From assembly GCA_044892505.1 (NCBI GenBank), contig CM097883.1, positions 182,094,001 to 182,158,000 on the forward strand: 64,000 nt of DNA. The letters run 5' to 3'. A program made the translations under genes and the position numbers. Under the pieces are notes generated by a model, which saw nothing but the letters and a program-made list of their open reading frames with translations, had not been told where the DNA came from and ran no database searches. Origin of the DNA: Schmidtea nova (lineage: Eukaryota). This document shows positions 26,511 to 63,787 of this stretch, one piece after another. Numbering within the stretch: the stretch's first letter is position 1; each line of letters starts with the position of its first letter.

Positions 26511-28631
26511 AAATAATTAATATTAAAAACCATTTTTATTTTCGTGAATACAAATGTGATTTTTGAAAATTTTTTTTCTAAGGCTGAATATTTTTTAAAA
26601 ATCTATATTAAAACTTTAACGGCTATATAATAAAATAATAATAATAATAATAATATGTGTTAAATACAGGGAAAATGTTAAAAGTATTTGAATTTGATGA
26701 ATAATATAGCAAAAGGATGAATAGATACAGGTTGAACATACACATTGAGCCAGCCCCAAACAAGTCGTAAAATACGAATATTCCTTGCCGATGACCAAAT
26801 TATTTCTCTTCGAGATCCTGACAGTTCATTTTGTGATTGATTTTGACAATTTATCTTTATTATGTTGACAATTAATTTTTATAATCTATCACCATGAGAA
26901 TTTATTAGAATGACAATTTATAATTTGACAATTTATCAATTTACAATTTGAGATCTTGCGAACATTTATTGACATTTTTTATGGCGATGAACAAAATTTT
27001 ATGCATTTTGAAAGTATATTTTGTGTAGAGCCCACCAAATAACCTAAAAACGGAGAAAATAATACAACAATTAAAAAAAAAATAATAAAAATAATTTACC
27101 AAAACATAGCAATCTAGAAAAAAGAATAGAAATAAATAAGCAATTAACAATAAATAAATTACCAGTAGAAAGAATTAGCATATTTCGCAACAGAGCGACC
27201 AGCGGGGGTCCTGAAATAGAAAATTATAAATTAATAAAAACTAAGTCCAAATAATTAAATAATTACTTGGAAAATCAGGACCACCCAATGAGAAATCTGA
27301 AACGGAAATAAAATATTATTTAGAATAAAGAAAAATGAGTGACATACTTTGATAGACGGCCTGATCCTGATTGGTCAATCTGACCAACTGGATCAATATA
27401 AATACCGATCCGAAAACCACAATAGCAGCATATATTAAAACTTAAAAGTGAGACTCAAAACGATTACATTGTTTTCAAGCCGTCATAATTTACAATATTA
27501 TTAAAAAGAATTTGCTCAATTCTTAAAGCCAAAGTAAAGTTTATTCGTTGTTGTATGATTTTTAATTTATTGTTTCCATGATTTCATCGATTAATATAAT
27601 TTAGTTATAAAATTTTCATTTTTATTTTATGCTTCAATAACCTATAGATATGCTTCTTCGACTGCTAACGCGGCAAGGGAGTTAGTCGTTGTCTTGGAGC
27701 CCTGGGGCTTCACACGGCGGTTAGACCTTTTTATTTTTATGTTTTGGTTAAAGTTTTGATAATTTCATTAGAACTATTTTTTGATGAAAGCTTTTAAAAA
27801 CTAGTTTCAGTATGAAACATGTTTTATTTTTGCAAATTATTTTGCAGTTCCACGGTTGCACATAGGGTGGGTCGGAACACCCAGAGATGAAAGACATATT
27901 TGTAAGGGGAAAGAATAACTCAGCCTTAAGCGGCATCCCGAAATTTTATTTGGCTCATCATATTCCAACACGACACATTTAATGAGGGGCAAATTGACAT
28001 TTTCAGAAAGAGACATTCAACAGGGATTTTAACACGTTTTTACCAATAGCAAGTAAACGAGGTTCTATGAGAAATAGCACAATTCAGCTCAACACATGGC
28101 AGACGAATAAACTAGATAATTATAAGGCGATCATTTGATTACTAATCGACAGTTTTACTATAAAATCGATTGCGAATTGAACAATTTGGTGTAATACGTA
28201 AACACCTCGTAGTGATCATATTATTTTATTACTAAACCATCCACATTTTCAATAAAGCGAACAAAGTCGAACAATTTTCTCGATCGAATTATCCAGCGAA
28301 TAATGCGGGTACCGATTTAGAGTAAACAAGATCGGATCTAATTAATGTAAATTTTAATCCTGATTGCTGTAGGTAGCGCAGGAATTTAACGAAAATTTTT
28401 ATGGTATTTATCATGATCGCTGTACATAGCGCAGAGAGTATATGAAATAAAAAATTAATCAATCCGATCGTGGTATATCGCAACGGTGTTGATTGAACAG
28501 GTAGATAAATTTCGCTTTCCAAATATTTAATTTTCTCTCAATAATTTCATGGATTTTTTCTATAAAATAATTCTAAAAATCTTGATTTATCAACCAGTTA
28601 ATTCGTTAATCCTATTATGGTAATAATACAG

Positions 28632-29170
28632 ATGAACCCAAGCGATGTAAAGAAATTTTTAACTACTCATAGAGAGTCATCAAAATCCGTCAATACTGGA
28701 CCCTCTAGGATGCTTCGGATGGGGCTGAAAATTTTGCTATCATCGATACTGCGAACCGTGAATGCGCAAATGTTTAAATGGCGGAGGGAGTTTGGGAAAA
28801 GATGCCCGTTCTCCGTTTGGAACACAGGCAAAGATCTCGTGCTGTATCGGGGAGGCCCGGGTGGCCGATTTCCAACCAGGACTATTCCTCCAAGTTCGGA
28901 CCACTGATGATTTTAATAAATGGAACAAATTGAGAACCAACTAAAATCGTTTATTGGGGACATATCCCTCAAAGTGAAATAGCCAAATTGGGCCTGCAGT
29001 TATTTACATCGCCTCGGCCCCTTGGAGATGAATACGAACAGAGTCAACCGAAGTTTTCCCTGAGCAATTTGCGTAAATCACCGATCAATCAAGGGTTTCA
29101 TGTCGCCTATGTTTTTAGAACAGATTTTTCCAGTTCATAAATCCGTGTGTATTAGTACAAAATAAATAAT
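28632..29170 (+). pseudogene. LTR ORF A homolog, frameshifted
   Basis: SILRTVNAQMFKWRREFGKRCPFSVW, then after a frameshift WPISNQDYSSKFG..IVYWGHIP...KLGL; homologous to 34267-34731 and 40227-40703. Confidence 0.85.
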
Positions 29171-29277
29171 TGCGTTTAAATTTTCTTGTTTTACTTCATG
29201 TATTAAGCATTCATATGCATAGGATCAATTATTCTGAACTAGAGAGATAAAATAATCATTTACCAAACTATTTCAGT

Positions 29278-29870
29278 ATGAACTCAGAAACTCATCAACA
29301 GAAGGAGATTGAGAAGTTATGGCGAATCAGACGGGCTCAAGAGAAAGAGCTGGTTCAAATAAAAGCCCAGTTATCTAAAGCTGAGGCGCAAGTAACATAT
29401 CTACGAAAAGGTTGGTTCGCTCCTGCCAGGATGAAGAATCAAATTTCCCGAACCGAAAGGGCACAACGAACTGCGGCGGACTACAAACTGGAGTGGGAGG
29501 CCACAAAGATCGAGTTGAGAAAATGCCTCCACTCGGTAACGACTTCGTACATTGAGAAGGAGTTGAAATCGCAAATCCGACCCATCACTTATCAAAGCTG
29601 GGTATCGGAGCAAAGAACTATGTGTTCAATTGGTACCGATGTCGAACGGCTATCTGAAGGAAAATCGGACAACACTCAGCAGGCCACCCATGAGGTTCCC
29701 ACGAATACCACTTACTTGAAGCGAAAAAGGATCGGTCAAAAACGCCGGAGATAAAGGAAACTCGTCACCCAGCGGCTCCAGACCCAAGTGGATCGTCTGT
29801 CGAGCCTAACCAAACTCGACTTACTAGCCGAAATCTTTCCACCAGAAGGAAATTTCACCGAATTGTTGTA
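29278..29870 (+). pseudogene. LTR ORF B homolog with one internal nonsense codon (29752-29754)
   Basis: Coiled coil plus WFAPARMK; the frame continues past the TAA as RKLVTQRLQTQVDRLSSL..., aligning with the C-terminus of 41020-41604. Confidence 0.85.
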
Positions 29871-30923
29871 GTTAATAAAACCTTTTACGAAGTGTGCCGA
29901 GATTTCTGTTGTTATTTCTGAATTTTCGCTAATTATAATGCAATTAAACAAAAGGTAGCTAATTTGTAACAATCACATTTTTTTTGTAAAGCTAAATAAT
30001 AAATCATTAACACGGGCGCTCGAGTGAGATAGAAAACGATATATGCATGATCATGGACGGGATATCCCTAGTACCAGTTAGAATTTCTATCTAACCCCTC
30101 CATGAACCCAGCATTTGGTTTGAAAATATTTTATGTAAATTAATTTTTTAAACTATTTGGAACATGGTTTATATTTTGATTTATATCTTAGTATTTTAAT
30201 TCAATAAAATAAATTATAATAATAATAATAAAATAAATAAATAATACTGATTGTTTAAATAAGTTAAAATAAATAAATTACTGTTTGTTTAAATAAATTA
30301 TATTTATGACCTACAAAGGTCAGCAAAATGAAATAATATTCCAAGGTTAAAAAAAATAATTCTATTTTGAAAACAACTCTGTTTTCAAAAAACAATTTCA
30401 ATCAACACAAAAAGCAAAATAGCAATCATTATTTGCAGATTAAGTGCCTAAAAATTTACTATATAAACTGACTGGTTTTCAGTCAAATCACCCATAAAAT
30501 CTTTTAATCTAAATAGAGTTACAATTTCGGTAGACGGCATTTGTAAAACAAATTAGAGCATACAAAATTTACACATTCTATCTCAGGAGACTGTATACAC
30601 TTACATAACACTTATAAACACGAAAAAAATAAAAATCTAATTTTTATTAAGCTTTAAAATGTTTGTGATAGATAAATAAAACTTAGTAAACAGACTTTGT
30701 GTTTTATTTATATACAAACCATCAAGTTGAGATTCTCGGAACCTCAACATATGTATGGATATATGTACTAAACTACAAAACTTGATTTTGATTCTTTAAT
30801 TATTAATTTTTGTACTTTTTATTTGTGGAACCTATCTCGTGTTTTTTGTACTACCGTCTTTTTACACGATTTTTTAGACGATGGTTCGTGGAACCTATAT
30901 ACCGTGTACAAACAGGATTTGGT

Positions 30924-30950
30924 GTATATATATATATATATATATATATA
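30924..30950. repeat. (TA)n microsatellite
   Basis: Direct sequence. Confidence 0.9.
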
Positions 30951-31492
30951 TTCGTAATCTCTGGTAAATTTGAATGGGTTTCGTACATTAAAACGTGAGT
31001 TTTAAATTTATAATATAAAAGTCTTCACAATATTTGCATTTTCAAAATAGTCTTGGGAGGAAATCAGTCAGATAAACGTTAAGTCTACTGTAATAGCCGA
31101 ATTTAATGAAAGTTTTCTGAATATAATATGGCTATAAATGTCTTCAGTGATTTTTAACCTTTTAATTGTCACGACCCACGGAATAGCCATAAAAATTGCG
31201 GTCCCAGTGCAGTCCAAGTTTGATCTGGTTTTTCTCTGATTTTCTAACTTTTTATTATTGTTGGCAAATTTAATCTTTTATTTATTATTGATTTTTTATT
31301 TGTAAATTGGCTTTCAATAGCAAGCCAAATTCAAATTTATAATTGGAATATATATAATGGACAAAAAAATATACAAAAAACGGGGGAACAGACTAAAAGG
31401 GGGCAATAATCAAACGAATTGTGAACATTACAATTATTTATTATAAAAAACCGTTAAAAACAAAAATAATAAAAGCTAAATTTTATTAAATC

Positions 31493-32378
31493 TTATAATT
31501 GCGGGAAACTTGGTTTCTTTAAATAGACAGATTGATGCGAATCATCAACTATGTTTTCTGATACTGGTGAAGGCTTATCAACTTCGAATCCTGATCCCCT
31601 CAATAGTCCATCAACACTGGCATTTTGTCGATTGGGAACAACAGGAACTGAAATAGAACCAATAGGATTAATTGTAACAAATACGTTATTAGTCTTACGC
31701 ATAAATTCAGTGCTACCGGGAAACAATGATATCGGTGCTCGATCATCCGATACTTGTGCTAATAATATTCTCGCATATGCCTCTTCCAATTGTCGGGCTC
31801 TTTCAGCCGCTTGTCTACGTTTCTCTTCCAATGTCAATTTGCTGGGCCGATAACAAGGGGTGTCCATAATAGTATATGGCTCAGGAATTGGTGGCACAGA
31901 TGTCGGGAATTTCAACAGATTTGACAGAACATCTTCATAGCAATACATTCCCGTATTCAACGGTTTTGAAGTTGTTTTTGTATTTTCTGCAGCTGAAACA
32001 CATATATAATTAAGACAAATAGTGCTAGCGTTTCACTTAATACTACGGAGTTTAATTGGTGCACACGGACGAATCAGTACGTCACGAATTTCATAAACAT
32101 TGACCCCTTTAAGAAGCAGCATGTATTTGATGTCGGTTAAATTAGTAATATTTCGATTGGAATTTTCAGTTAGTTTTCTTGAATCATAACCCAAAGTTAA
32201 TAAAACTAGATGATTATTTATAATATATAAATATGAGAAATCATAAATTTGTTATAAGCTAACAATTTATTACAATGCGACACATGAGATTAAAAGCATG
32301 TGAATCAGAATTTTTAAAACCTATTGACTCCAATATGGAAGCAATGGATGAGTGTAAACATTCAATTATTGGATCCAT
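31493..32378 (-). CDS. TAF8: TFIID subunit 8; exons 32378-32264, 32205-32047, 31992-31493 (257 aa)
   Basis: Histone-fold N-terminus (SIASILESIGFKNSDSHAFNLM...LGYDSRKLTENSNR..NLTDI) and TAF8 C-domain (VPPIPEPYTIMDTPCYR...RRQAAERARQLEEAYARI). GT-AG introns of 58 and 54 bp preserve the frame. Confidence 0.82.
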
Positions 32379-33555
32379 TTAGAATGAACACAATTAAAGT
32401 CTTTAAAATTTAATAAAAATTTAAATAAATCGCCATAAACATATATTATTAAAACAAATGACAAACATTTTATGAAAATATCGATTTTTCTTACTAAAAT
32501 TGCAAAAAATACAACTCAATTTCTATTTCATAAAATGCTTTGTATGATTAATAAAATAATAAATTTTGAATTTAGTATTATTATAAATAAATTTAACTTC
32601 AAATCAACAAAAAATACAATAAAATAAAATATTTAAGATGGTTCATCATTGATGCATATAAATTATCAATTTCTATTCCATTCTTTTCAATAGTTAACTA
32701 TTTAATTTTATTAGTTTCGAATACATTAAAATGTATGATTTTTTTCGTGGATTGTGGGAAGGTATCTAGCCTTGAATTCCTATGGTTACGAATGTTAATT
32801 AATAATAATCAGTAAAAATTCCTTTGACTCCTCCATCTTTATCCTAAAATATATACGGGAACGTATGTCTACGTTAGTAGTGTATATCTGTGGTAAATAG
32901 GTTGCTTCGGCAGTGAGGTCGCTTATCTCATTTTGCATTCTCACCTACTAGAGTGCATGTAGTAAACAAAAAATTAGTATAAATACGATGCTGATCTTAT
33001 TCATTCAACGTTTCAGTTGCCAGTCAACTTTACCATCGGTGAATGAGTTGATTAATTTTTGATGTTGCTTTTGTCACTGTAACCTAGAAACCGTTATGCT
33101 GGGTTCATGGAGGGGTTAGATGAAAAATGTTCTAACAATGACTAAGGATCCCTCATCCATGATCATACATAAAATGTGCAACTATACACTCAAGCGCCCT
33201 TGATTATTTCCCTGGAAAATCAAATTGGTGATGCGCATGGTGGTGAAACAATGATGGGCAGGTGAGCACTATTGCTAGTACTACTCCCCATTTAGAAGGA
33301 CTTACGCTTTACTGGTATGCTATGTAATTCACCTAAAATCTGGAGAATTGATCTTTATTATAATTATTTCATTCCTTTACCGTATATAAAATTTGCATGA
33401 AGTTTTCTAATTTGGTGCCCTTATAATTGTTTATTTACTTTATTTTTATTTATCAACTAATTTAAGAAATAGCAAAAATGACAACAATTCAAAATTCCAT
33501 TTATTTTCTATTAAGCTACTAAAAATTCCTTCTGGGGGGAACACTTCATTTAATA

Positions 33556-34096
33556 ATTAATCCTCGGATAATTTGTGTAGCCTGTCTACCTGACTTTGCA
33601 ACTTTTGGGCGAAGAGTTTTCGTTGTCGACGCTATTTCTGTCCGATTCGCTTACGCTTTTGATGCGTATTGACGATTGGAGTGGTAGTGTTGATTGGTGA
33701 ATTTGGTTCGGCGCGGTTTTCGATAAGACCTTCGACGTCCGTACCTATCGAGGTTCCCAATTTTTTCTCCGCCGTCCATTCCTGGTATGTTATAGGTCGT
33801 ATTTGATCCTTTAACTCCCGTTCGATGTAGGAAGTCGTCACGGAGTGAAGGCATTTACGAAGCTCGATTTTGGTAGCTTCCCACTCCATCCTGTAATCAT
33901 CCGCTGTCCGTTGTGCTCGCTCTGTTTTTCCAAGCTGCTCCTTCATTCGAGCAGGAGCGAACCAGCTCTTGCGCAGGTACGCGATCTGCGCCTCAGCTTT
34001 GGCTAGATTTTCTTTGAGGAGACCCAATTCCTTATCTTGGGCTCTCCGAATTCGCCACATCTTTTCGATTTCCTTCTGAGCGGCTGCTAGGTCCAT
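33556..34096 (-). pseudogene. LTR ORF B homolog (ORF 33632-34096, continuing past one TAG)
   Basis: QKEIEKMWRIRRAQ...WFAPARMK...KRKRIGQK*RRQRKLFAQKLQSQVDRL. Confidence 0.85.
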
Positions 34097-34266
34097 TTCT
34101 ATAATTTAGCTAAATTAAAATTTGATGTATCGTCCTCAGGTCAGGCATTATTTATATTTATCAACATTCTCTGCATTATGATATTAAGACAAAACAAAAC
34201 AAAAGAAAAAAAATCAACACCATGAGTATTACTGACTTATTTATTATTATTAAATCATAATGATTA

Positions 34267-34731
34267 TTATTGTGGAAATAAAATATGTAGTTCGTGATTT
34301 ATGGGGGTTCTGCGAAGTCTGGCCCATGAAAATGGGGATTGTTCATCGTTGCATTCTCTTCCGAACGACTTTTTTGGTATGAATGCTCGCAGCCCTAATT
34401 TGGACAATTCCTTTCGGGGGATGTGTCCCCAGTAGATAAGCTGGTTTGGCCTTCCGTCGGCATCATTGATCAAGATGACCATCTGTCCAAACTTCTCGGA
34501 GTAGGGTCTTTTTGAGACTGGCCAATCCGGTCCGGCCTCCCTGCCATCCGCCCAGATGGAGAATGGGCATCTCCGATTAAACCCTCGACGCCATTTGTAA
34601 ACTTGCGCATTGATGGTACGCAAAATCCGTGGTGGCAGCTCCTTGAATCCATTTGTCGCTCTCTCCTTCTCGATTTCCTCTTCCGAGGTGCGGATTTCGG
34701 TTAGTCGATAATTGATCTCTGCTGCCATCAT
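34267..34731 (-). CDS. LTR ORF A homolog (154 aa), unknown function
   Basis: Intact ORF sharing RT.NAQ..KWRR, CPFS.W and .YWGHIP..LG with the other LTR copies. Confidence 0.8.
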   Translation of the reverse strand: MMAAEINYRLTEIRTSEEEIEKERATNGFKELPPRILRTINAQVYKWRRGFNRRCPFSIWADGREAGPDWPVSKRPYSEKFGQMVILINDADGRPNQLIYWGHIPRKELSKLGLRAFIPKKSFGRECNDEQSPFSWARLRRTPINHELHILFPQ

Positions 34732-37821: not shown

Positions 37822-38249
37822 ATGTTAGTCATACAATGAGTAATAAATGTGTTGTCAAATATTAGGATTTATTTAAACAAGAATGAAACATTTATTTAAT
37901 TAATTATTTTATGTATGTCAATTTTACATATTTTTCTGGTTATTATCTATTTTCTGATTATTTTAGAGAAAAAAAATGATCTTTAACATTTCTTTCAATG
38001 TGAAAAATCTAAATTCAAAATACTGAATTATTAATCAATTTACAAAAATTAAATATTTCTAAGCAGTTTGTAATTTATATAAATCAGCTAAATGTACGAA
38101 AACAATTAAATGTCAGAACATAGCCAATAAATAATTTCAGTAAAGTTTTCTTTTATGTTCAAATGAAATTGAATTCGAGTTTGAAATATATTCAGTTGTG
38201 AAGTGTATTTATGTAACTTATGGTGGGTTATTGGCAAAATGCGAAAACT

Positions 38250-39255: not shown

Positions 39256-39299
39256 ATTGGTCAGTCTAGATCAGACTGATCAGTATAAATACTGATCAG
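39256..39299 (+). promoter_or_regulatory. Putative LTR promoter: inverted CCAAT (ATTGG) plus TATAAATA box
   Basis: The same arrangement lies ~370-395 bp from the LTR start in all three copies (TATA at 27397, 35710 on minus, 39284). Confidence 0.7.
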
Positions 39300-43633: not shown

Positions 43634-43639
43634 TTGAGG

Positions 43640-43825: not shown

Positions 43826-43849
43826 CCAATAGGGATATCCGGATATATA

Positions 43850-53400: not shown

Positions 53401-56400
53401 GATTAAATGCAGTTACAAAAAGGGATACATACCCATTACCGGACATCAACGAGATGTTATTGACATTACAAGGAGCGGCATATTTTACATCATTGGATTT
53501 GAAAAGCGGATACTGGCAAATTAAAATGAAAGAGGAAGACAAAGAGAAAACTGCTTTCACTATCGGAAGAGACTTGTACCAATTTAGGAAAATGCCATTC
53601 GGACTAACCAATGCGCCAGCATCATTTCAAAGATGTATGAATTTCGTTACCCACGGCATAAAACAATGCATGGTTTACATTGACGACCTACTGATCTACT
53701 CAAGCACATTTGAACAACACATCCAAGATATCAGAGATGTATTTGTTAGATTGAGACAATGGAAACTCAAGCTCAAACCATCGAAATGCGATTGGGCAAA
53801 AGAGAAAGTGACATTCTTAGGACATATTGTGTCCGCAAAAGGAAAGGAACCAGATCCCAGAAACATTGATAAAGTAAAAGAATGTCCAGTACCAAAGACG
53901 ATAACGCAGATCCAAGAATTTCTCGGATTATGCGGTTACTATAGAAAATTCATAAAGGATTACGCAGGAATTGCAAAACCAATCCAGGAGCTAGTAAAGA
54001 AAGACGTATCGTTCATATGGGGAAGCGAACAACAAACAGCCTTCGAAACATTACGAGATAAGTTAATAACTGCACCAATATTGGTTCACCCGGATTTTAA
54101 AAAGCCATTCTTACTCGCAACCGACGCAAGTGGATATGCAGCAGGAGCAGTGTTAGGACAATATGATGACGAGGGAAAAGAGCGGGTAATCGGATATTAT
54201 AGCAGAACATTCAAGAAACACGAGAAGAATTATTCAGTAACGGAAAGAGAAGCATTGGCAATAATATTAGCAATAAAACACTTTAAATATCTATTATGGG
54301 GACACATTATATGCATAACCACAGACCATCAACCACTTGTATGGCTAGGACAACATAAGGAAACATCCAGCAGATTAATGAGATGGGCGATGCAATTACA
54401 AGAATATTCACCAGATATAAAATTCAAATCAGGAAAAGCGAATGCCAACGCAGATTGTATGTCAAGATTAACGTTTCCAGAACTAACAGACCCAGAAGTG
54501 CAAAGAATATGCATAATGATAGCAGAGGACTTGGATTTCAGTGAGTTAAAGAAAGATCAGCAAGAGGATAAAGAACTAAAACCCATCATAGAATTTCTAA
54601 GCTCACGAAATATGGATGTATTCGAAGACAATGCGGAGTTAAAAGAACACATGAGGAAATACCAACACCGATACACAATAGAAAAAGGATGGTTGTTAAT
54701 ACAAGATGGAGAAAAACGATTAATGTGTCTGCCAAGTAATAGACGAAAAGAGATAATAACTCAATACCATGACGGAAAGCTAGGAGGACACATGTCCTCT
54801 AAGAAAACATTAGATCGTATGAGACAGAAATATTATTGGCCAACAATGGACGAAGACGTAAAGGAATGGATAAAGAACTGTTTAACTTGTGCCACAAGAA
54901 AGGATAGTGGGAAGAAATGGAAAAATCCCTTAAAACCCATGCCAATACCAGCGGAACCAATGACTACCATTGCGATGGATGTAATAGGACCATTGCCAGA
55001 AAGTTTAAACGGGAATCAATATATATTGGTAATAACGGATTATTTGACTAAATTCCCTGAAGCATTTGCGATGCCGGATCAAAAAGCAAAGACGGTAGCA
55101 AGAATTTTAGTAGAGGAAATATGTTGTCGATACGGAACCCCGAAACAAATACTAACAGATCAAGGAACAAATTTTATGAGCGAAATACTAGATGAAGTAA
55201 CAAATTACTTCAGAATAGCCAAATTACGAACGTCACCATATCATCCGCAAACCAACGGGCAAACGGAAAGATTTAACGGCACATTGATTCGAATGTTATC
55301 CAATTATGTAAGCAAACACCAAACAGATTGGGATGAATACGTAAAGCTATGTCTAATGGCATACCGAATGTCGATACACGCAGCAACAAAATTGAGTCCA
55401 TTTCAATTAATGTATGGAAGGGAATGCAATATGCCAATAGATCTTGAATATCAACCACCTTTGTCTCAATATATGGAGGAAGATGATTACGTCACCAAAT
55501 TCAAAGAACGAATGCAAGAGATATGGAAGACAGCAGAACTAAACATAAAGTTTTATCAAGAAAGTTACAAGGACCTACACGATCAAAAGAAAAATGTTAA
55601 AACAAATGATCTTAAACCCGGAGATTGGGTAATGATAGAAACCCCAGAAATAATACCAGGAACCGTTAAAAAACTACAAAGACCAGGAAAAGGCCCTTAC
55701 GAAGTTATATACAAAAAGGAAAACAATGTGAAGGTAAAACTTGTTAATCGACCATTGATACGACCAATATACGTTAATACATGCAGATGTAAAAAAGTAC
55801 CAAAGACAATAACCACAGCGCCAGAAGAACGAATAATAACCAGATCCCAGACAGCCAGAATGAATATGCTCAGAGCAACCAATGAAAGTACCGAAGCAGA
55901 GAACAATCAACGAGGAAAAAGAAACAAGGAAATTGTACTAAAAGCCAGAGAAATAATGGGAAAATGGCATGTCAGAGACGATATATTAAGAGATATTCAG
56001 TCGATAATTAGTGATTACGCAAGGGGACTACCAACAAAACCAGTCATTTCAGAACTACTGGAAAAGATTCCAGAAATACTTTCACTAGAAGACATAGGAG
56101 GACAACCAGCATTACATAACGCCATAAAATGGGGAGAAGTAGAGAGAGTAAAAGAATTTCTAAAAATCGCTAAGGAAACAAACCAACACCTTGGTTTTGG
56201 GAATAGCGAACAAGAAACACCATTAATGGTAGCAGCCATCTACAAATCGGATAAAGCAATAATAGACCTTTTGATAAATGCCGATTTCAACTGGACGGAA
56301 CGCGATAGAGAAAACAAAACAGTCTTGAATCACGCAATATGGAGCTCAAATCAGATAATGCTCAAACAAATAATCGAGAAGGCCACTTGGGAAATAGACG

Positions 56401-59400
56401 AACTGATCAAAGGTGATATAATCAAGGAGGCAATAAAAATCGGTAACTGCAAAACAATACGCAAGCTAATAAAATGGAAAAGATCCGAAAATGATACATG
56501 GGTGTTAAATATAAACGAGGTATACAGTGAAGGGCAAAACACGTTATTACAATTCCTATTAAAATTCGTTTGTGACCAGAAAGCACTGTTAACGTTATTA
56601 GACAGAAGAAATATCATAATTTCCAAAAACAAAGAGGAGTGTAAATTCGAAAGTGAAAAAGAAGCATTATTCAGGAAAATTAGGGAATGGTGTGCAAAAT
56701 CGCTAACCAAGACGATAACTTACAAAGATATATCCAATTTTCAAGATAAATACAAAACGGTGGAGGAAGAGTATGACAAACTAATAGACATATTAAACCA
56801 CCCCGAAAAATGCAAACAATTCCTATGTCAAAAGGAAAGAGAAAGCAAAAGGAAAGTTACACCACTTTTCAGCGCAGAGGTACCATATCAAGAAAGGTTA
56901 GATGCGATACAGGACAAAGCAAAAGAACTATTACCAGAATTCGAAAATTCTAAACATACACTGGAGATACTCGGATCAATTGTGGAAAAGGTACACGCAT
57001 ATGCGGAAGGAACTTACAATGAAAACGATATGATGATCATAAAAAGAGAAATGCCAGTGACTTTCTTATTAACAAAGAATGGAGTATTGCCAATACATAG
57101 AGCCTTACGAGCAGGAAAAAATAGGAGGGTAGTCGAAATTGCACGGTTGATGCAAGATTGCGGAAGTGACATGAACATGAAAGATAAAAAGGGAGACACC
57201 CTCATGATATTTGCAGCAAGAGCGAACACAAAAACCCGAGTGTTACAGGAACTGTACGAAGTAGGTGCAGGACTCATGGGAAGAACTAACAAAGACAGCT
57301 CAATACTAGACGTAGCGTTGTTAACGTACAATTGGGAGGTGATAAATTTTATAAAAACAATCACAAATCAGGAGGAAATAGAATACCTTACAAGGAGAGT
57401 TAAAAAAGCTAGCGTACATTCCATGATGCATAACGCTGAACTAACTGAAGTAATACTCAATTGGATGAACCCAAACACCAATGAACCAGCATTCAGGATC
57501 AACGAGTGCATGGAACAAGGCCAGAATTTATATATAAAGTGTGCATTAATAATAAACAAATGGCCAAACATAATAGACATCTTCATGAGAAGAAAAGATT
57601 TACGATTCACAAACAACCCAAAGGAAACAGAACGTACGGACAAATGGAAAGAACTAATGAAAACGTACCTTAATAATTGGATAAAAGCCAAGAAAGAGAT
57701 TCTAGATTGTAAATTAACCGATAAGGAAATACCTAAGCAGGCAGTAACACAAGAATATGAAGCAAGTATACTCACAACCATAACGTATGAAAAAATGATA
57801 GAAGCAATTAATGTCGAGGACGACATTTTCAACGACCAAAGGGGAGGCGACAATACAGGAAACGACGACGATAGTACTCGAGAAAATCCAGAGGATCATG
57901 AGTTACTAGATAAAGAGGACAGTGAAGAGAAAGGAAGGGACACAGAGAAAAATGATAAGAAAAATGAATTTGGGAAACAAAGAAACAACAACTATAAAAA
58001 TAAAAACGAAGTAAAAAGAACAGGCTACAAACAAACAATAAACCCATTCTTTAAACCAGAACTATTATTACTAACGATAATCATGACCTTAATTAGTCCC
58101 ACTCAAGGAATGATATGTGAAGAAAGAGCGACAATACAAATTGGAAACGCAAAAGGAATCGAACGAGTATGTTGGTCAAAAAAGGACAAAATCTCGGGAC
58201 AAAATAGTCCAATGGATTGCAGGATCTCAGAATACGAACAAGAAATCATAGAGATCGATGACCTAGAGCTAGATACTTGGTACAGAATGTGCACCGTTCG
58301 GAAACCAAAGGATCCGAGATCACATAAGACAATTGCATGTGCAAATTACCTAACACCCAAAGTAACCATAACAGTACAGCAGTCATCCAAAGGAGACTAT
58401 GTCGTAGGAAAGTGTGGAAGAACAGAGACACAAGGAACAAAAAACAAGAAACCTCAGACAATAGACAGACGAACAACGCCAACTATACAAATTACCATAG
58501 ACAGGCCCGAAGTAAGAGTAACCACAAATGAAACTGAAAGAGTGACCTACCAAACAGAATTACTATGTTTAGCACTCATATTAACAATGTTAAAACGGTT
58601 AGAAGAAGGGATAGACATTGACACAATGGCAGTAACAGAGATGAACGACACCCAAAACACCAACCCAAAGTGTTGGGCCAGAAGCAACGAAGAAATTGGC
58701 GTAAGCGAAATAAAGACGAGTCGGAAAAGGAAAACAAATAAAGTAACCAAGATATCAGAAGTAAAAGCAGACAGGACGTATGAACTATGTTTACTAGAAA
58801 AAGAAAGACACAAGAAAGGAACGACAATTTGTAAAACATTTCAACCTGGGGAAACAATAAAGTTCATACGACGAGGAAGAAGAAATAAACGCACCAAACG
58901 GAGAACAACTATAATGTTAGAGTTAACCGGAATAGAACCGGACGTCAAAGGCGTATGCTGGAAGAAGCAGGAAAAGAAAACAAACCAGAATACACCGCCG
59001 CAATGTCGAACAAACAGAGGAACAACCACAATACAGATAGAAGGGTTAGAAAGTAATCAAACGTACGAAATATGCCTGATCAGGAAGAGCGACAAAATAA
59101 CAGTAAATGAACTGGAATGCAAAATATATAAAACACCCACCGGAACAAGAATTGGAAAGACAACGCGAAAAAGCAGAAGACAACGGAACAAAGGAAAAAC
59201 GAGGTATACCACTACTTTTAAACCTAATGGACAACAGAAAAACCAAGAAATACAAATAAAAACCGAAAAGAATACTACAGCAACTCTTATACTATGGAGA
59301 ATAGACAATAAAACGTTAGAAATATGTTGGGCAGTAGTCCAGGAACAAAAAGAAAGACAGCCACGATACTGCGAAAACGTAAAAGGAAAAGAAGAAATGA

Positions 59401-60002
59401 GTATCAAAAATCTGAAATTTAATAGAGAATACGAGATATGTGCGGTAGAAAAGACGGACATATTAGGAAATCAGCAGGAAAAATGCGAAACGTACTACAC
59501 ACCGGTAAACTCAACGTCCAAAGGGAAAGTGAGAAAACTCGAATTTAAAGAATTAAGTCAGACAACGAAACAAATGGACGCGGAACAAATAGTAATAGAC
59601 CCTTACGCAAGATGGACGCCGGAAGAAGTAATTAAAGAAGTTAAAAGAAAACAACAAGAACGAGAACAACTACTAAATAAACTAAAGGGACAATATGGAC
59701 CAATGATTAACCAGAGTGAAATTACGAAGATGGACGTAAACAAACAAGTTAGAGAACTAATTGGTCTAGGAATACTAGCAGCAACTATTCCAGTAATAAC
59801 AGTATTATTAATAATATGGATATATGATGTATTCAACAAGAAACCAATAACACATTGGCCAGATATAAAGATTATGAACTACAGTATAGAATTACCGGAA
59901 GAAGTACATAAAGAATTCCAAAGGGGGACGAAAGGTAAAGAATTTTGGAGACAAATAGAAGATGAAGAGCGATACGAAGGAAAGACAGTGATGGTGATAT
60001 AG
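47490..60002 (+). CDS. Polyprotein continuing the gag frame: Ubl domains, AT-hook, Bcl-2-like domain, signal peptide + chuvirus-like glycoprotein + TM, PR, RT, RNase H, integrase, ankyrin repeats, signal peptide + 4 FN3-like repeats + TM
   Basis: PR IDTG at 52461; RT LDLKSGYWQ and YIDD at 53676; RH TDAS; IN H-H-C-C, DDE and GPY. Glycoprotein ~50085-51855; BH2-like YIISKGGWETF at 49875-49907; ankyrin-like repeats ~56090-57340. Confidence 0.93.
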   Translation, partial: PGEVTTLSICDDKREENLQEVAKEANMCFEKKIKPRLEYEKGRILRGNLNSMIEQIIPQIKKHRKELMRSEYEKLKRCIECIRDTSHTRWSQISYGKVIAKMGKAMFRQGKITDLKIAVELPNEDTKEIEVVADCTIKELVNVINETLLQREPEEEWEDDIIMKYNEHVLWDHDERRLYKIGIWDNHQTIHVIRMDDTPRETAKDEKRERERKKEVVHKLQQIVDIYRNWRIWPEWEDVLEELNLNRRLPTPVEKQWNERGKCWEPKAGEYEEEYGIGIEDDHKPETGRVCMVTRKAMPADLDGPETTTMWLEREKQKTEEFVEILKTNAHGKRKVVKGLADFFVVNGEDITCLRKVAKAIAEYKRVNEWCPEQLDHVIKKWRNQEFSQESPQKVHLRIVYPNQEKEEFWVGIAEKVRDIKKKLRYEPPFHLQHQGRSLDNSLEIGITPAQLDIANTLTVAAIAGQPLKLKEEKKPKGSMSTPSPMKSVMTPGTSSEQARTTPRDTRERTPPEPYDVDEIFTDSDDMLEELIELTKEKDDNIFERIQELPTAIPVTNTEDEVEQEIIIEEVNEIAEEEARRANVENVQFTQEMERWLEERANEPRDVTEETGRETRLVETGTTMDKRPRGRPKMDPANVVIKSREEKRRDQWDLCLKKLNKIAETKEKETTQTYQGEEWISKMLMEILAIIDPELKKWWRINEISERAKSLHSAIAPILPELIKEKTRSNHLDWQGTTMLIKKLTEGAETDNKYLIAIAYTIYNLLTLSRGRLKPTALERHIKNTAKIIEKEIEPYIISKGGWETFTKTNQKKNQAKNMKKKFEEILGELEKEKSGTGNGKSSLNLSSIIMMMLIWMISTDGATAFEVFDCDQMALGEKYSLRGTEQCKDATPTELKTLKKRQLYHVYQEAELIRTMVRECKVYKTRFAFYCGHRHYSAIVMPGTERESVMLQGEDCEKLFKHGEVETRDRVKIRGKTGVILQQTYYVAGAITGGEGYCQGATYPIFGVAATNLVVIDTYTVELKTYEAFFDPTTGEMKTLPMCKIESNTCQTGMSTLTYQIRGKECQLQLLKEAEFDEIQGKTFQEEEEDEAARGKILQDTVRGEKKIETRTQEKQIKMRNTPTVLITSDADIGMRFVKGKTALKCGVAMLETNYPGIFVSKQEVPSAKRKVHTNDVKLHLYMNNKMDFLFHRGQASLQKVYYDLINNDCILNREILKTKLAVAITNPDSAMPLLPLREGHFGRVVGEVMYVYICKKTNAKVATMTKLQPGQCTNELEIEYKGKVRYVQPVTRIINPISFEPNPFNCSNAYGPLYQKPDGNWVMFPSRTEVPAPREFELMQLSKGRKFKDVDVSNMGFYNAKDLEAARQNILFPARREAVLSSIVTITGGTNYQGGPNYELLLSPAHFKKATENMMKAMWGRFLIFGQMMAGILGVILIIQIIRVIITQMLACFDIYKREKKVNWKLVVGFLPFLAKTMVLHGHSKDIHRIKRLLKILAKMKGTDEEVGRKFKKIMNNEQARQQLKKERKGLWERMKGYRTQDDSSDDDDDDNEGGQVFKNQVPQYVEKNPAEMWKCYAPPPTMYQEPTPGMRQNTMQMMPMTNIYPMIPEDYRTRRCRSVDPQGDSHTIAVMSSNTGPVLTTTIEINGREIEAMIDTGANISAIDIKWIPQEQRRDIERTNVHVIACSKEVVEVAGRWWVKIKHQNTEIETYVAVIPALSVPCIIGTDLMPALFKEIVIDLGTMRLKDRTGQICAIEAKVTSSKQIIVPARREKICFVKIDPTIEGDMIFEPSKRFEKRKSLPMARGLVSANDNGEIPINVVNFDEEDKIIYENERLGKLTPMIDIEIPIKEGVKEEEPTWNINSQLLNEDQKKQLERLLMEYKDIFAASDLDLGTCDVTLHTIPLTDETPIALRPYKLAEAQKSVAEAEVQKMLDAEVIEPSCSPWQFPVVMVKKKDGTQRFCIDYRRLNAVTKRDTYPLPDINEMLLTLQGAAYFTSLDLKSGYWQIKMKEEDKEKTAFTIGRDLYQFRKMPFGLTNAPASFQRCMNFVTHGIKQCMVYIDDLLIYSSTFEQHIQDIRDVFVRLRQWKLKLKPSKCDWAKEKVTFLGHIVSAKGKEPDPRNIDKVKECPVPKTITQIQEFLGLCGYYRKFIKDYAGIAKPIQELVKKDVSFIWGSEQQTAFETLRDKLITAPILVHPDFKKPFLLATDASGYAAGAVLGQYDDEGKERVIGYYSRTFKKHEKNYSVTEREALAIILAIKHFKYLLWGHIICITTDHQPLVWLGQHKETSSRLMRWAMQLQEYSPDIKFKSGKANANADCMSRLTFPELTDPEVQRICIMIAEDLDFSELKKDQQEDKELKPIIEFLSSRNMDVFEDNAELKEHMRKYQHRYTIEKGWLLIQDGEKRLMCLPSNRRKEIITQYHDGKLGGHMSSKKTLDRMRQKYYWPTMDEDVKEWIKNCLTCATRKDSGKKWKNPLKPMPIPAEPMTTIAMDVIGPLPESLNGNQYILVITDYLTKFPEAFAMPDQKAKTVARILVEEICCRYGTPKQILTDQGTNFMSEILDEVTNYFRIAKLRTSPYHPQTNGQTERFNGTLIRMLSNYVSKHQTDWDEYVKLCLMAYRMSIHAATKLSPFQLMYGRECNMPIDLEYQPPLSQYMEEDDYVTKFKERMQEIWKTAELNIKFYQESYKDLHDQKKNVKTNDLKPGDWVMIETPEIIPGTVKKLQRPGKGPYEVIYKKENNVKVKLVNRPLIRPIYVNTCRCKKVPKTITTAPEERIITRSQTARMNMLRATNESTEAENNQRGKRNKEIVLKAREIMGKWHVRDDILRDIQSIISDYARGLPTKPVISELLEKIPEILSLEDIGGQPALHNAIKWGEVERVKEFLKIAKETNQHLGFGNSEQETPLMVAAIYKSDKAIIDLLINADFNWTERDRENKTVLNHAIWSSNQIMLKQIIEKATWEIDELIKGDIIKEAIKIGNCKTIRKLIKWKRSENDTWVLNINEVYSEGQNTLLQFLLKFVCDQKALLTLLDRRNIIISKNKEECKFESEKEALFRKIREWCAKSLTKTITYKDISNFQDKYKTVEEEYDKLIDILNHPEKCKQFLCQKERESKRKVTPLFSAEVPYQERLDAIQDKAKELLPEFENSKHTLEILGSIVEKVHAYAEGTYNENDMMIIKREMPVTFLLTKNGVLPIHRALRAGKNRRVVEIARLMQDCGSDMNMKDKKGDTLMIFAARANTKTRVLQELYEVGAGLMGRTNKDSSILDVALLTYNWEVINFIKTITNQEEIEYLTRRVKKASVHSMMHNAELTEVILNWMNPNTNEPAFRINECMEQGQNLYIKCALIINKWPNIIDIFMRRKDLRFTNNPKETERTDKWKELMKTYLNNWIKAKKEILDCKLTDKEIPKQAVTQEYEASILTTITYEKMIEAINVEDDIFNDQRGGDNTGNDDDSTRENPEDHELLDKEDSEEKGRDTEKNDKKNEFGKQRNNNYKNKNEVKRTGYKQTINPFFKPELLLLTIIMTLISPTQGMICEERATIQIGNAKGIERVCWSKKDKISGQNSPMDCRISEYEQEIIEIDDLELDTWYRMCTVRKPKDPRSHKTIACANYLTPKVTITVQQSSKGDYVVGKCGRTETQGTKNKKPQTIDRRTTPTIQITIDRPEVRVTTNETERVTYQTELLCLALILTMLKRLEEGIDIDTMAVTEMNDTQNTNPKCWARSNEEIGVSEIKTSRKRKTNKVTKISEVKADRTYELCLLEKERHKKGTTICKTFQPGETIKFIRRGRRNKRTKRRTTIMLELTGIEPDVKGVCWKKQEKKTNQNTPPQCRTNRGTTTIQIEGLESNQTYEICLIRKSDKITVNELECKIYKTPTGTRIGKTTRKSRRQRNKGKTRYTTTFKPNGQQKNQEIQIKTEKNTTATLILWRIDNKTLEICWAVVQEQKERQPRYCENVKGKEEMSIKNLKFNREYEICAVEKTDILGNQQEKCETYYTPVNSTSKGKVRKLEFKELSQTTKQMDAEQIVIDPYARWTPEEVIKEVKRKQQEREQLLNKLKGQYGPMINQSEITKMDVNKQVRELIGLGILAATIPVITVLLIIWIYDVFNKKPITHWPDIKIMNYSIELPEEVHKEFQRGTKGKEFWRQIEDEERYEGKTVMVI

Positions 60003-60127
60003 GAGGCGGGATATGACTGTAAATAATAGTGTAAATAACAATGCATTACCGTAATAGTATGGGTATCGATATTATAAAAATATAAAAAGAGAAATCGAGA
60101 AAACGATTAATGTATATAATTTAGAAA

Positions 60128-60484: not shown

Positions 60485-60575
60485 ATAAATAAAGCGAAAA
60501 ATTGTAAATATGTAAAAACAAAAACAAGAAAAATCAAAAAATAGATAACAAATCAAGTGTATATATCATTGTAGA

Positions 60576-61958
60576 ATGAATACAGAAGGAAAAGCCGAAG
60601 AGCGGATAATCGAAATTTTGAGAGCCGAGAACAGGAAATGGAGTCAGAGACTCACTTGTGTAAATTGTAAAAACATAATATTGAAACCAAGACAAACCCT
60701 ATGCGGATGCAGAGTATGTACCAAATGCATACACGAGTTAAGTATGAAAAGACCACCAGAATGTCCAGAATGCAAAGAAGGACAAATAAAATTCGAAGAA
60801 ACCGGACCAGATAGAGCAACTCAGAGAGAAATCATGAACACGAAAACCGAATGTATAAATCAACCATGTATATGGCAAGGACAAATACGCGATCTCGAGA
60901 ACCATCTGGAGAACTGCGAGGAGAAGAGAACCGAATGTAACAAATGCCAACAAAAAATAACTATAAAGAATAAAGAGCAGCACAAAGATGAATGCAAAGA
61001 AGAGGAAAGTCTATGCGAATATTGTGGAACTCGAGAAACGAGGAGAAAGATCGAGGAAGAACACCTGAATGTAAAAGAGGAGAAAGTATGTAGACAATAT
61101 GTAGGAATATGTTCAAACGAATGCGAGATAACGGCAGAAGTAAAATTACAAGAACATTGGAAAATGTGCACGGAGAAACCAAGGGAATGCCCTTATAACA
61201 AACAGGGATGTATGGAGAAAAGAACGCAAAAAACCATGAAACAACATCTGGAGGAAGCATTGCTAAAGCATGCGGAAATGACAAACGAAGCAACAAAAGA
61301 AACCGAACAAACAATCAAAAAATTAGAAAGAGAAATAGAGTCACACAAGATAATGGTAAACCTACTGTTGGAAACCAGAGAGCAATTCGAACTAACACGA
61401 GAAAAGATGGAGGAAAAGATAAAAGCTATCGAAGAATTGGCTAAAGGAATGAAAATCCAGTACAACAAACTCACCCAGGATACCGAAGAAAAGTTACCAA
61501 TCGCACCATATGTGTGGAAAGTGACAGATTTTAGAAACAAATTAACAGAGGCCAGAAATATGACGAAAACAGCAGTAATAAGCCCACCATTTTATTTATG
61601 GAGAAACGGAGCTAAAGTGAGATTGAAGCTATACCCAAATGGAGACGGAAGAGGACGAGGAACACATGTGTCAATATTTTTCTCGCTATGTAAAGGAGAA
61701 TACGACGACCTAGTAGAATGGCCCTTGAAAGTAGGAGTCATTGTAAGAATCAGAAGTGTAACAAAACCAGTGGAAAAATTCTTTGAGACAGAGAAACATG
61801 CGAGTACGAGCGAGAAACCAACCACAGAATGCGGATTAGCAGCGGGAGAACCGATGTTTATAACGAAAGAAAGCCTATGGGAACGATTATATGCAGACAC
61901 CCTATACATAGAAATGGAAAGGAATGAGAAAGCAGATAGAAAAGGATGGCTGACGTAA
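60576..61958 (+). CDS. TRAF-like protein (RING, TRAF zinc fingers, coiled coil, MATH), 460 aa
   Basis: CVNC..PRQTLCGCRVC..C..CPEC RING; C..QPC.W.G...L..H...C finger; MATH motifs WKV.DF, SPPFY, LYPNGDG.G.GTHVS.F, EWP. Confidence 0.92.
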   Translation: MNTEGKAEERIIEILRAENRKWSQRLTCVNCKNIILKPRQTLCGCRVCTKCIHELSMKRPPECPECKEGQIKFEETGPDRATQREIMNTKTECINQPCIWQGQIRDLENHLENCEEKRTECNKCQQKITIKNKEQHKDECKEEESLCEYCGTRETRRKIEEEHLNVKEEKVCRQYVGICSNECEITAEVKLQEHWKMCTEKPRECPYNKQGCMEKRTQKTMKQHLEEALLKHAEMTNEATKETEQTIKKLEREIESHKIMVNLLLETREQFELTREKMEEKIKAIEELAKGMKIQYNKLTQDTEEKLPIAPYVWKVTDFRNKLTEARNMTKTAVISPPFYLWRNGAKVRLKLYPNGDGRGRGTHVSIFFSLCKGEYDDLVEWPLKVGVIVRIRSVTKPVEKFFETEKHASTSEKPTTECGLAAGEPMFITKESLWERLYADTLYIEMERNEKADRKGWLT

Positions 61959-62071
61959 CAAGAGAAGTGATCATGTAAATAATATGTACAGTTAAATACC
62001 CAAAAATTATTATATAAACAAAAATAACTGATATATAAACCGATTAAAATTTTCATTCTGTAATTTTAGCA

Positions 62072-63133
62072 ATGGGAAATATCGAGGTATGCTTACAGGA
62101 AATTACGATGCATCAAGCAGAAGCGATTAGCGATCATCTAGAACAGATAGAAATATGGGTCAATGCATATTATAGAAAGCAAGAGGAGATAGAGAGACAA
62201 GCCGAATTATTAAAAGAAGCGGAAAGATCAAGTCAAAGAAGTCGAGAAAAAATAGAGGAAGTATACAAAATGCTACAACAACAAAAGGAATATTACCAGA
62301 GAATGATGAAAGAGCGACGAGAGGAAAGAGACAGACAGCAGATGGAAGCTGAACACAAGATGTATTCGATTACAGAACAAGCAAGATATTGGAAGAAAGA
62401 AGCGAAAGAATCTTACGAAAAAGCTAGAGAAATAATAGAAAGGACAGCTTATAGCGATGACTGGAAATTATATAAAGAGATCGACGAATTAAAAGACGAG
62501 TTAGAACAGAAAATACACCAAGAAGTGTTGAATAAAAGATGGAATACAAAGAGACAGCAATTTATCCGGGAACAAGCAAAGAAAATTAAAGGACTAACCT
62601 ATCAAGTTCAAAGAATGGGAGAAGAACTAGCTAATCAAGAACAACTGAAAACTATGCTCACCGGAATATGGAATCAGAAAGAAGAAGAGATGAAGAGAGA
62701 TATAAATGGTTATCAAGGGGTGATTACTCAAAAGAAAATAGAGCTAAAAAGAACCAGGGAAAGGTTAAAGGAAGAGAAACAAAGTTACGAGGAAAATTTA
62801 ACGAATTTGATGAAAGAAAACGAAGAATTGAAACAGAAACGAGTAACAGTATCAGTAATACCCAAAGAACCAAGTATAACGGCAGCCGTAACAAAAATGA
62901 TAAAAGAAGACGAACAAAAGACAAAAGTAATCGAATTAGAGAAACAAATAGAAACATTAACAGAACAAGCAAATTACCTAGAATATTTGCTAGACGAGGA
63001 GATCCAGATATCTCACATGTATCGAGATGAAGTCGAAATGTGGAGGAGCAGGGTTGTTTGGATACCACTCCCCACGAACCAAGTAGAGCCTCAGGACGAA
63101 GGTTTCTATGAACCAAATGAGACGATTGTGTAA
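62072..63133 (+). CDS. Long coiled-coil accessory protein (353 aa)
   Basis: Intact E/K/Q-rich ORF with an AG acceptor-like site 2 nt before the ATG. Confidence 0.75.
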   Translation: MGNIEVCLQEITMHQAEAISDHLEQIEIWVNAYYRKQEEIERQAELLKEAERSSQRSREKIEEVYKMLQQQKEYYQRMMKERREERDRQQMEAEHKMYSITEQARYWKKEAKESYEKAREIIERTAYSDDWKLYKEIDELKDELEQKIHQEVLNKRWNTKRQQFIREQAKKIKGLTYQVQRMGEELANQEQLKTMLTGIWNQKEEEMKRDINGYQGVITQKKIELKRTRERLKEEKQSYEENLTNLMKENEELKQKRVTVSVIPKEPSITAAVTKMIKEDEQKTKVIELEKQIETLTEQANYLEYLLDEEIQISHMYRDEVEMWRSRVVWIPLPTNQVEPQDEGFYEPNETIV

Positions 63134-63214
63134 ATAAAGCGGAAAATATATTTTTGTAAATAATTGTATGAAATGTAGTGTCAAATTGTATTGACCTATC
63201 TGTAAAGAAACAGT

Positions 63215-63787
63215 ATGAAAAAGCTCAGAATACCGATATTCCTATATCTAATAACAATCACCCTACAAAGAGAAGATCTTCAACTCACAGAGAAGGAGCT
63301 ACGAGCCCTACCCGAGAAAACCTATCAAGAACTAGATAAACTAATCAGCGAAGCAACACAAGAAATCACCCAACTTCAACAGATAACATCAGACAACCCA
63401 AACGATGAAAAATTTCAACAGGTCCTATATGAACATCGAATCAAATTGAAAACAATCAGAAAAACCCTAAAAGAAGGTCGAGAACCCATAAAAAGCTTAG
63501 CCCAAGCAGAGATAGAATATCAAGAAAAATGGATCATCGCAATTATAATAATCCTTGCACTCAGCGTGACCATTATCGCGATCACAATCCTCATAACATC
63601 ATACCGAGTGAAGATCTTAAAACAAAAACATGTCATCCTGAATCGAACAACAATACAAGACATCAGAACCCAAAAGCGAATGAGAAAACACCTAAACCGA
63701 ATCCAAAGCCACTACGAACTACGAACAATCAGCGAAAGAACCCCAATCCAATCCAATACCAATCATGAAATCAAAGAGCTTGTGTAA
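63215..63787 (+). CDS. Predicted membrane protein (N-terminal hydrophobic leader, helical domain, TM, basic tail), 190 aa
   Basis: MKKLRIPIFLYLITITL leader; TM WIIAIIIILALSVTIIAITILIT. Confidence 0.72.
   Translation: MKKLRIPIFLYLITITLQREDLQLTEKELRALPEKTYQELDKLISEATQEITQLQQITSDNPNDEKFQQVLYEHRIKLKTIRKTLKEGREPIKSLAQAEIEYQEKWIIAIIIILALSVTIIAITILITSYRVKILKQKHVILNRTTIQDIRTQKRMRKHLNRIQSHYELRTISERTPIQSNTNHEIKELV

Follow-up and report, generated by a model that had tools for sequence, protein, structure and literature searches.

In a 64,000-nucleotide (nt) window of Schmidtea nova contig CM097883.1 (the whole stretch of DNA that was analysed), the start codons of a series of accessory open reading frames (ORFs) were found to lie immediately behind acceptor-like AG dinucleotides. 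Eleven such AG/ATG sites, reported earlier in a sequence-only reading, were examined. The AG-ATG signal is real and non-random, and it occurs in a known kind of element: the 11 sites split over three units, namely two solo long terminal repeats (LTRs) and one full giant gypsy element. The window has a GC content of 33% and represents animal DNA with short inferred introns (36-54 nt). We tentatively favour, at a little under an even chance, that the accessory genes would be expressed in the manner of complex retroviruses, by alternative cis-splicing in which the non-coding leader of the LTR in question is joined to the acceptor-tagged genes.

All 11 AG/ATG pairs, as well as the donor-like ACG/GTAAAG at 39664/39665, were found where they had been reported. 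The distance from the nearest C/T-AG (YAG) to the ATG was 0 nt at 28632 and 34731, 1 nt at 29278, 60576 and 63215, 2 nt at 34096 and 62072, 3 nt at 42485 and 60128, 5 nt at 41020 and 15 nt at 40227. The spacing of 0-15 nt that had been claimed therefore fits 11 of 11 sites, at a threshold that is weak, as a YAG within 15 nt also precedes 47/138 non-coding ATGs, 205/497 coding ATGs and 31/106 first ATGs of other ORFs (background 29-41%). At 3 nt or less the sites stood apart (9/11, compared with 10/138, 59/497 and 14/106 in the same control sets, 7-13%). The 11 sites are not independent, since six of them are three paralogous A/B pairs. The five single-copy ORFs (ATGs at 42485, 60128, 60576, 62072 and 63215, the first ATG in each case) all have a YAG within 3 nt. 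The comparison with shuffled controls that had been proposed bore this out, with a joint p of 1.5e-6 for the five ORFs against shuffles of their own upstream 80 nt; at a background of 13% the same 5/5 result has a joint p of ~4e-5.

The LTR units and the features that they carry are as follows.

27024 to 30113, + strand: solo LTR1 (3,090 bp; TG...CA; 4-bp target duplication TTTG), TATA box at 27397, donor-like GT at 27534 and 27867
28629 to 28907, + strand: ORF A1, acceptor-like CAG at 28629-28631, ATG at 28632, frame broken early relative to A2 and A3
29274 to 29754, + strand: ORF B1, acceptor-like CAG at 29274-29276, 158 aa, basic C-terminus
33097 to 36077, - strand: solo LTR2 (2,981 bp; target duplication TAAC), TATA box at 35710, donor-like GT at 35596, second donor position reading AT (35306)
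33632 to 34101, - strand: ORF B2, acceptor-like TAG at 34101-34099, 154 aa
34267 to 34734, - strand: ORF A2, acceptor-like CAG at 34734-34732, 154 aa
38889 to 42131, + strand: 5' LTR (LTR3) of the full element (3,243 bp), TATA box at 39284, first 9 nt recurring at 63992-64000
39310 to 39424, + strand: predicted first leader exon, ATG-free, ending at TAG/GTATTT (GT at 39425) before a T-rich stretch
39616 to 39664, + strand: predicted second leader exon, ATG-free, ending at ACG/GTAAAG
40209 to 40703, + strand: ORF A3, acceptor-like CAG at 40209-40211, ATG at 40227, 158 aa, no known family
41012 to 41604, + strand: ORF B3, acceptor-like CAG at 41012-41014, ATG at 41020, 194 aa, no known family
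63992 to 64000, + strand: start of the 3' LTR, of which 9 nt lie in the window and the rest beyond its end

The solo LTRs belong to families related to the full element. ORFs A and B are homologous in all three LTRs and lie downstream of a conserved TATA region, although the A and B proteins of LTR3 are only 28-33% identical to those of LTR1 and LTR2. In spite of this divergence the AG before A and before B was kept in 3/3 LTRs, while its distance to the ATG shifted. The interpretation of the AGs as selected 3' splice-site-like signals is supported by the statistics and by retention in three diverged LTRs; the splicing steps themselves are predictions from sequence. The acceptors of the element are similar to the AT-rich ones found in three inferred host introns. 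ORF A gave no match in the Atlas protein search, and its structure model had a pLDDT of 44; ORF B gave one weak coiled-coil-like match in the protein search, and no similarity was found between ORF B and the 353-aa ORF of the element's tail.

Leader-like sequence was recognized in each unit. In 3/3 LTRs an ATG-free stretch of ~115 nt directly follows the TATA region and closes at a GTA donor-like site (27534/35596/39425) followed by a T-rich stretch; this site, with a modest donor score, lies 114-141 nt past the TATA box. At the second donor position a GT is present in 2/3 LTRs, as AGG/GTGGGT in LTR1 (27867) and as ACG/GTAAAG in LTR3 (39665). Across the LTRs, 12-19 upstream ATGs precede ORF A. 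An unspliced RNA would carry 14 ATGs ahead of A3 and 54 ahead of the RING-finger ORF, so that some processing or internal initiation would be needed.

The sequence-only reading had suggested that one promoter feeds many genes, with a candidate common donor at 39664/39665. For four of the 11 sites this was excluded: two (28632 and 29278) belong to solo LTR1, upstream of that donor, and two (34096 and 34731) to solo LTR2, which is on the opposite strand. Each solo LTR also carries its own TATA box. The idea that one promoter at 39664 serves every site was accordingly rejected; a leader shared within the full element alone is possible.

The internal region of the full element (42132-63991) measures 21.9 kb, and the total is 28,346 bp if the 3' LTR is taken to be as long as the 5' LTR. 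In order, the element comprises the 5' LTR, a primer-binding-site (PBS)-like 18-mer, the RING ORF, tandem repeats, gag, env-pol, four tail ORFs and the 3' LTR.

42138 to 42155, + strand: PBS-like 18-mer, 6 nt past the end of the 5' LTR
42479 to 42946, + strand: RING-finger ORF, acceptor-like TAG, 153 aa, AATAAA overlapping the stop, TATA-like motif 78 nt upstream
43419 to 44063, + strand: tandem repeat block before gag (61-, 41- and 43-nt units)
44580 to 47489, + strand: gag frame of 969 codons between stops, with its first ATG at 45039, Retrotrans_gag, CCHC knuckles, ending at an in-frame TGA
47490 to 60002, + strand: env-pol frame, 4,170 codons, with weak ubiquitin (Ub)-like and Bcl-2-like matches, Monjiviricetes-type fusion glycoprotein, protease (PR), reverse transcriptase (RT), RNase H (RH), integrase (IN), ankyrin repeats and a C-terminal transmembrane (TM) segment
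60003 to 60484, + strand: spacer 1 (125 nt) and 118-aa ORF, TGTAAATA at 60018 and 60030, TAG at 60122-60124
60485 to 61958, + strand: spacer 2 (91 nt) and TRAF-like ORF (460 aa), TGTAAATA at 60503, TAG at 60572-60574
61959 to 63133, + strand: spacer 3 (113 nt) and 353-aa ORF of no known family, TGTAAATA at 61974, TAG at 62067-62069
63134 to 63787, + strand: spacer 4 (81 nt) and 190-aa ORF with a TM segment, TGTAAATA at 63155 and another at 63129 across the stop, CAG at 63211-63213

The full element is a Ty3/gypsy LTR retroelement, as given by gag and by the order PR-RT-RH-IN (Pfam). TG...CA LTRs, the 4-bp target duplications of the solo LTRs and the PBS-like 18-mer, which we take to match tRNA-Pro, are in agreement with this assignment. 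If the PBS assignment is right, R plus U5 would span ~2.8 kb and encode two proteins, giving an unusually long minus-strand strong-stop DNA (39310-42131). The env domain (PF24664, E 1.5e-67) lies upstream of the protease in the same ORF, and in the same frame as gag. It is preceded by weak Ub-like and Bcl-2-like matches (Pfam E 0.068 and 0.12); the model of this pre-env part is of low confidence (pLDDT 45), and the PDB structures listed as matching it belong to the Bcl-2 family (best E 0.075). The C-terminus of env-pol (~58050-60002) resembles a type I membrane protein, with hydrophobic stretches at residues 3499-3518 and 4061-4092 and repeated Cys/Trp units between them. This region gave no Pfam match. 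By eye, the related proteins P0001-P0004 also appear to close with hydrophobic segments.

By its domain content the element is a Burro-like giant gypsy, an element type that is already known. Burro/GYPSM1, the planarian giant gypsy (PMC6431247), is described as ~28 kb long with multi-kb LTRs, ankyrin repeats and TRAF and RING functions, and as carrying gag and then Ub-like, Bcl-2-like and mononegavirus-type env domains in frame before PR-RT-RH-IN. Found here were an internal region of >20 kb, a total near 30 kb, an env in frame between gag and pol, and ankyrin, TRAF/MATH and RING domains, the Ub-like and Bcl-2-like matches before env being weak. The gag and env-pol frames together span 5,140 codons stop to stop, which is the length given for one Burro-like ORF1 (PMC6431247); the two elements are not claimed to be identical, as three CCHC-like knuckles were seen here (by eye) and two are given for the 5,140-aa element. 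There are further differences. TRAF is here a separate ORF downstream of pol, whereas in the described elements it lies inside ORF1 or upstream (PMC6431247); an in-frame TGA parts gag from env-pol, so that ORF1 is not a single uninterrupted frame; and, unlike in Burro-like elements, no BIR domain was matched in any ORF scanned (Pfam). Named Burro proteins were absent from the protein-search matches, the best of which reached 44%. The GAG-ENV-POL errantiviruses with an HSV/gB-type env (PMC13524379), reported in Nematoda, Bryozoa and Platyhelminthes, share the gag-env-pol order, a class III-type fusogen, LTRs and a PBS. The element described here differs in being far larger, with at least seven accessory ORFs. 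The main text of that report makes no mention of splicing, accessory genes, TRAF, ankyrin or Burro.

In the mechanism that we tentatively favour, RNA polymerase II would start ~25 nt past the TATA box of each LTR, and a leader donor (39425 and/or 39665 in the full element) would be spliced to one of the acceptors, those of A, B and RING or, 20-23 kb away, that of a tail gene. The AG sites would act as alternative 3' splice sites, yielding one mRNA per accessory gene, and each mRNA would end at a poly(A)-like signal after its own stop. The unspliced RNA would serve as genome and as template for gag and env-pol; on it, the upstream ATGs before ORF A would block scanning. Each accessory ORF keeps its own ATG, and the phase from the first exon base is in frame at 5/11 sites, as expected for a leader without AUG. 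Spliced messages are typical for ORF3 expression in gypsy and other LTR elements (PMC5408684). It has also been described that a cis donor out-competes a spliced leader (SL) for a downstream acceptor (PMC4558846), and that the cis and trans modes can coexist at one acceptor (PMC12582326). The sequence-only reading, which had placed cis- and trans-splicing side by side, is plausible in its direction towards splice acceptors.

In complex retroviruses and in the adenovirus major late unit, one non-coding leader is spliced to many acceptors just before ATGs, and the retroviral genes nef and sag lie inside LTRs. The likeness consists of the acceptors placed just before ATGs and the genes within LTRs. 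In contrast to the retroviral arrangement, the LTR genes are here downstream of the TATA box, so that solo LTRs keep a complete promoter-leader-two-gene cassette, and a poly(A)-like signal of its own seems to accompany most of the genes. In Cer1 of C. elegans (PMC3315495), likewise a gypsy element, the unspliced genomic RNA has to pass over consensus sites, and a cis-spliced RNA occurs with and without SL1; Cer1 makes one spliced product, in contrast to the series of accessory genes here. In flatworm SL operons (PMC8629364, PMC12582326), too, genes follow one another on the same strand at ~100 nt, each start being preceded by an acceptor; the difference is that they consist of host genes and not of a retroelement. 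Nothing on LTR-encoded genes or splicing is found in section 7 of the Burro account (PMC6431247). The literature searched, with the 2018 genome and 2026 Burro1 papers outside its scope, held no description of Burro splicing, of LTR-encoded Burro genes or of an SL-resolved retroelement operon. As far as this literature goes the expression layout is provisionally new, and the two papers just named may already hold transcript maps.

Strong donor words were mildly scarce in the sense strand of gag and env-pol (GTAAGT 0 versus 2.6 expected, p 0.044; AGGTA 11 versus 18.5 expected, p 0.032), scarcity being seen for 3/9 patterns with uncorrected p values. Gag and env-pol are separated by a single in-frame TGA (then C) at 47487-47489, which either serves as a read-through site or breaks the frame in this copy. 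Ahead of gag, the best donor-like site is GAG/GTAAGA (GT at 43222); an ATG lies 5 nt upstream of it, itself preceded at 11 nt by a TAG. Shortly after the stop at 44577, a CAG (44582-44585) is in matching phase for gag, in a poor acceptor context. A candidate start mini-exon (43193-43227), together with the acceptor at 44582-44585, would flank the repeat block; this pairing is post hoc.

Several observations weigh against leader cis-splicing or qualify the AG-ATG pattern itself. The introns of the tail genes would span 20-23 kb and pass several acceptors and poly(A)-like signals, whereas the inferred host introns measure 36-54 nt. The tail spacers (81-125 nt) match the spacing in flatworm operons (PMC8629364), and the donor-like GTAAAT present in each of them could out-compete the distant leader. 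As to the donors, the GT at 39665 is a mediocre one (<6/9 on a simple U1-match score), and LTR2 reads AGG/ATGAGT at the second donor position. Neither a branch-point nor a pyrimidine-tract consensus stood out at the acceptors, and those at 63213 and 34732 are weak, with a further AG 3-4 nt upstream. The ATG at 28632 is the second of the A1 ORF; the first, at 28617, lies upstream of the AG, with another YAG 19 nt away. A YAG also lies 10 nt from the gag ATG (45039) and 14 nt from the env-pol ATG (47568), both outside the set of 11, in a purine-rich context that makes them a loose fit to the pattern. For the start of gag the sequence is equivocal: the frame is open for 153 codons ahead of its first ATG, and although the acceptor-like site at 44522 shares the gag frame, a stop at 44577 intervenes in this copy. 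In four sequencing runs on 27001-47000 no GT-AG joint was found among the 15 of 96 joints listed; the reads behave as DNA and bear neither way on splicing.

The tail ORFs share features that bear on the rival explanations. Six copies of TGTAAATA, which contains the donor-like GTAAAT, were counted at the four tail spacers, and the sense strand of the element has no others; the first copy past the stop that precedes each spacer stands 16, 19, 16 and 22 nt from it, and an 8-mer common to all four spacers arose in 19/2000 shuffles. We take it to match both a Pumilio element and a forkhead site. It is probably a regulatory element, acting either as a Pumilio-type site or as a donor-like U1 site that damps internal polyadenylation. 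A role as CFIm poly(A) element was set aside on the condition that the host is a planarian, as planarian poly(A) sites are reported to lack an upstream UGUA (PMC5068929). Tail ORFs end in G-TAR in 4/4 cases versus 0/8 for other ORF ends (Fisher p 0.002, post hoc). At 60481, 61955, 63130 and 63784 the stop thereby overlaps a donor-like GTA word. AATAAA was present within the 130 nt after 9/12 ORF ends, one of the nine being the broken A1, and it overlaps the stop or lies within 6 nt of it in the RING, 118-aa and 353-aa ORFs. It was not found within 130 nt of the ends of the env-pol, TRAF and 190-aa ORFs. Among the four ORFs upstream of a tail spacer, two are followed by AATAAA and the remaining two by one-mismatch variants. 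The AATAAA near ORF ends is modest evidence, given how often the hexamer turns up on this A-rich strand, with 29 occurrences in the gag/env-pol frame.

Part of these data would suit an SL-resolved operon made up of the tail genes and possibly also of A, B and RING, in which an LTR-driven pre-mRNA is cut at the poly(A) signals and the downstream genes are capped by SL trans-splicing at the AGs. At 81-125 nt, the spacers fit flatworm operons, whose spacing peaks at ~100 bp (PMC8629364), AATAAA stands close to three of the stops, and the Burro-type architecture points to a planarian host, for which SL RNAs are cited (PMC12582326, PMC8629364). A gypsy element, Cer1, does make SL1-capped spliced RNA (PMC3315495), and flatworm operon acceptors have the least cis-splicing (PMC12582326). 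On the other hand, a flatworm SL that ends in AUG (PMC12582326) would be out of frame at 6/11 sites and every accessory ORF has kept its own ATG; donor-like sites upstream should win the acceptors; and AATAAA is missing after env-pol, TRAF and the 190-aa ORF. Rfam matched nothing within the window, SL RNA included, and the tRNA scan was likewise empty. We consider the operon unlikely, and give the same low probability to its extension, an enveloped giant retroelement running a true SL operon under control of TGTAAATA (TRAF, membrane protein and others) while solo LTRs scatter two-gene cassettes. The tail spacers could instead be short local GT-AG introns, whose removal would fuse neighbouring ORFs or leave a uniform stop-to-start gap of ~20 nt for reinitiation. 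GTAAAT occurs six times in the four spacers where ~0.5 would be expected, and all four tail ORFs end in G-TAR. An in-frame join results at 3/4 junctions (chance 8-23% per junction) when the GT used lies at the stop or just ahead of it, and removal from the TGTAAATA GT leaves 19, 20, 18 and 23 nt. Burro accessory domains are moreover known both as ORFs and within the polyprotein (PMC6431247). These patterns are all post hoc, however, and A, B and RING, whose spacers lack TGTAAATA, would be left unexplained. Fusion needs no ATG at each AG, the join of TRAF to the 353-aa ORF is out of frame, and the 190-aa ORF starts (by eye) with a signal-peptide-like stretch. Local introns seem improbable.

An internal promoter for each accessory gene, the AG marking the end of a short intron in the 5' untranslated region or of an outron, appears about as improbable. 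Two tail ATGs do have TATA-like words 40-61 nt upstream, RING has one at 78 nt, and GTAAATA would be a forkhead-type DNA site, as we take this motif to be. Such words are nevertheless expected by chance in A/T-rich spacers; none occurs in spacer 4, and spacer 2 has one at -16 only. Promoters alone need no AG, and the distance of TGTAAATA is fixed from the upstream stop (16-22 nt) and not from the downstream ATG. That the pattern reflects chance together with selection of examples, or start-codon context, is very improbable. The 29-41% background at 15 nt, the six paralogous sites, the second ATG of A1 and the two weak acceptors would agree with it. Against it stand a YAG within 3 nt of the first ATG in all five independent ORFs (p 1e-6 to 4e-5), an AG position that varies over 0-5 nt, unlike a fixed start context, and the host ATGs, which had a nearby YAG in 0/2 cases checked.

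The four sequencing runs gave single contigs at ~20x across the inferred host introns, again behaving as DNA, and among the 40 of 780 differences listed none fell at an AG site. Contigs with 2-3 differences reached a depth of 368-471 over the LTR3 leader and 237-348 over gag, versus ~12-33 in unique regions. This excess hints at many close copies of the element, depth not being copy number. No relatives with flanks were found in viral contigs, and two short loci were found in metagenomes. A further 42 genome-contig loci were not used as relatives, as they match only from query residue 767 on, that is, generic gypsy pol without env. Gypsy pol sequences (29-57% identical; L003-L044) were seen in many records of bacterial metagenome-assembled genomes, most likely as eukaryotic contigs binned into them.

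The anti-apoptotic cargo of Burro1 is reported to support planarian stem cells (PMC13465017, citing another paper). The part of the Burro account consulted (PMC6431247) leaves aside the question of how many accessory genes can be expressed from a single RNA of a 25-30 kb retroelement. The window gives exact donor, acceptor and poly(A) coordinates, by which leader splicing, an SL operon, local introns and internal promoters can be separated. With its genes downstream of the LTR promoter, every solo LTR could stay a protein-expressing unit beside host genes.

Host TAF8-like and bZIP genes sit between the LTR units (the TAF8 match is weak). A small decayed second LTR retroelement occupies 22479-26294, with 149-nt direct repeats (97%) and DUF7047/integrase fragments. 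At 1-2331, open at the window start, lies a protein-primed family B DNA polymerase of the Polinton/adintovirus-like kind; tandem arrays then run to ~4900. The window also holds the following.

8160 to 8741, - strand: host carnitine acyltransferase exons
~9500 to 9900, - strand: tubulin-like fragment (by eye)
10943 to 11401: CAF1-like fragment (by eye)
17807 to 18454: hAT transposase remnant
21365 to 22319: DDE transposase remnant

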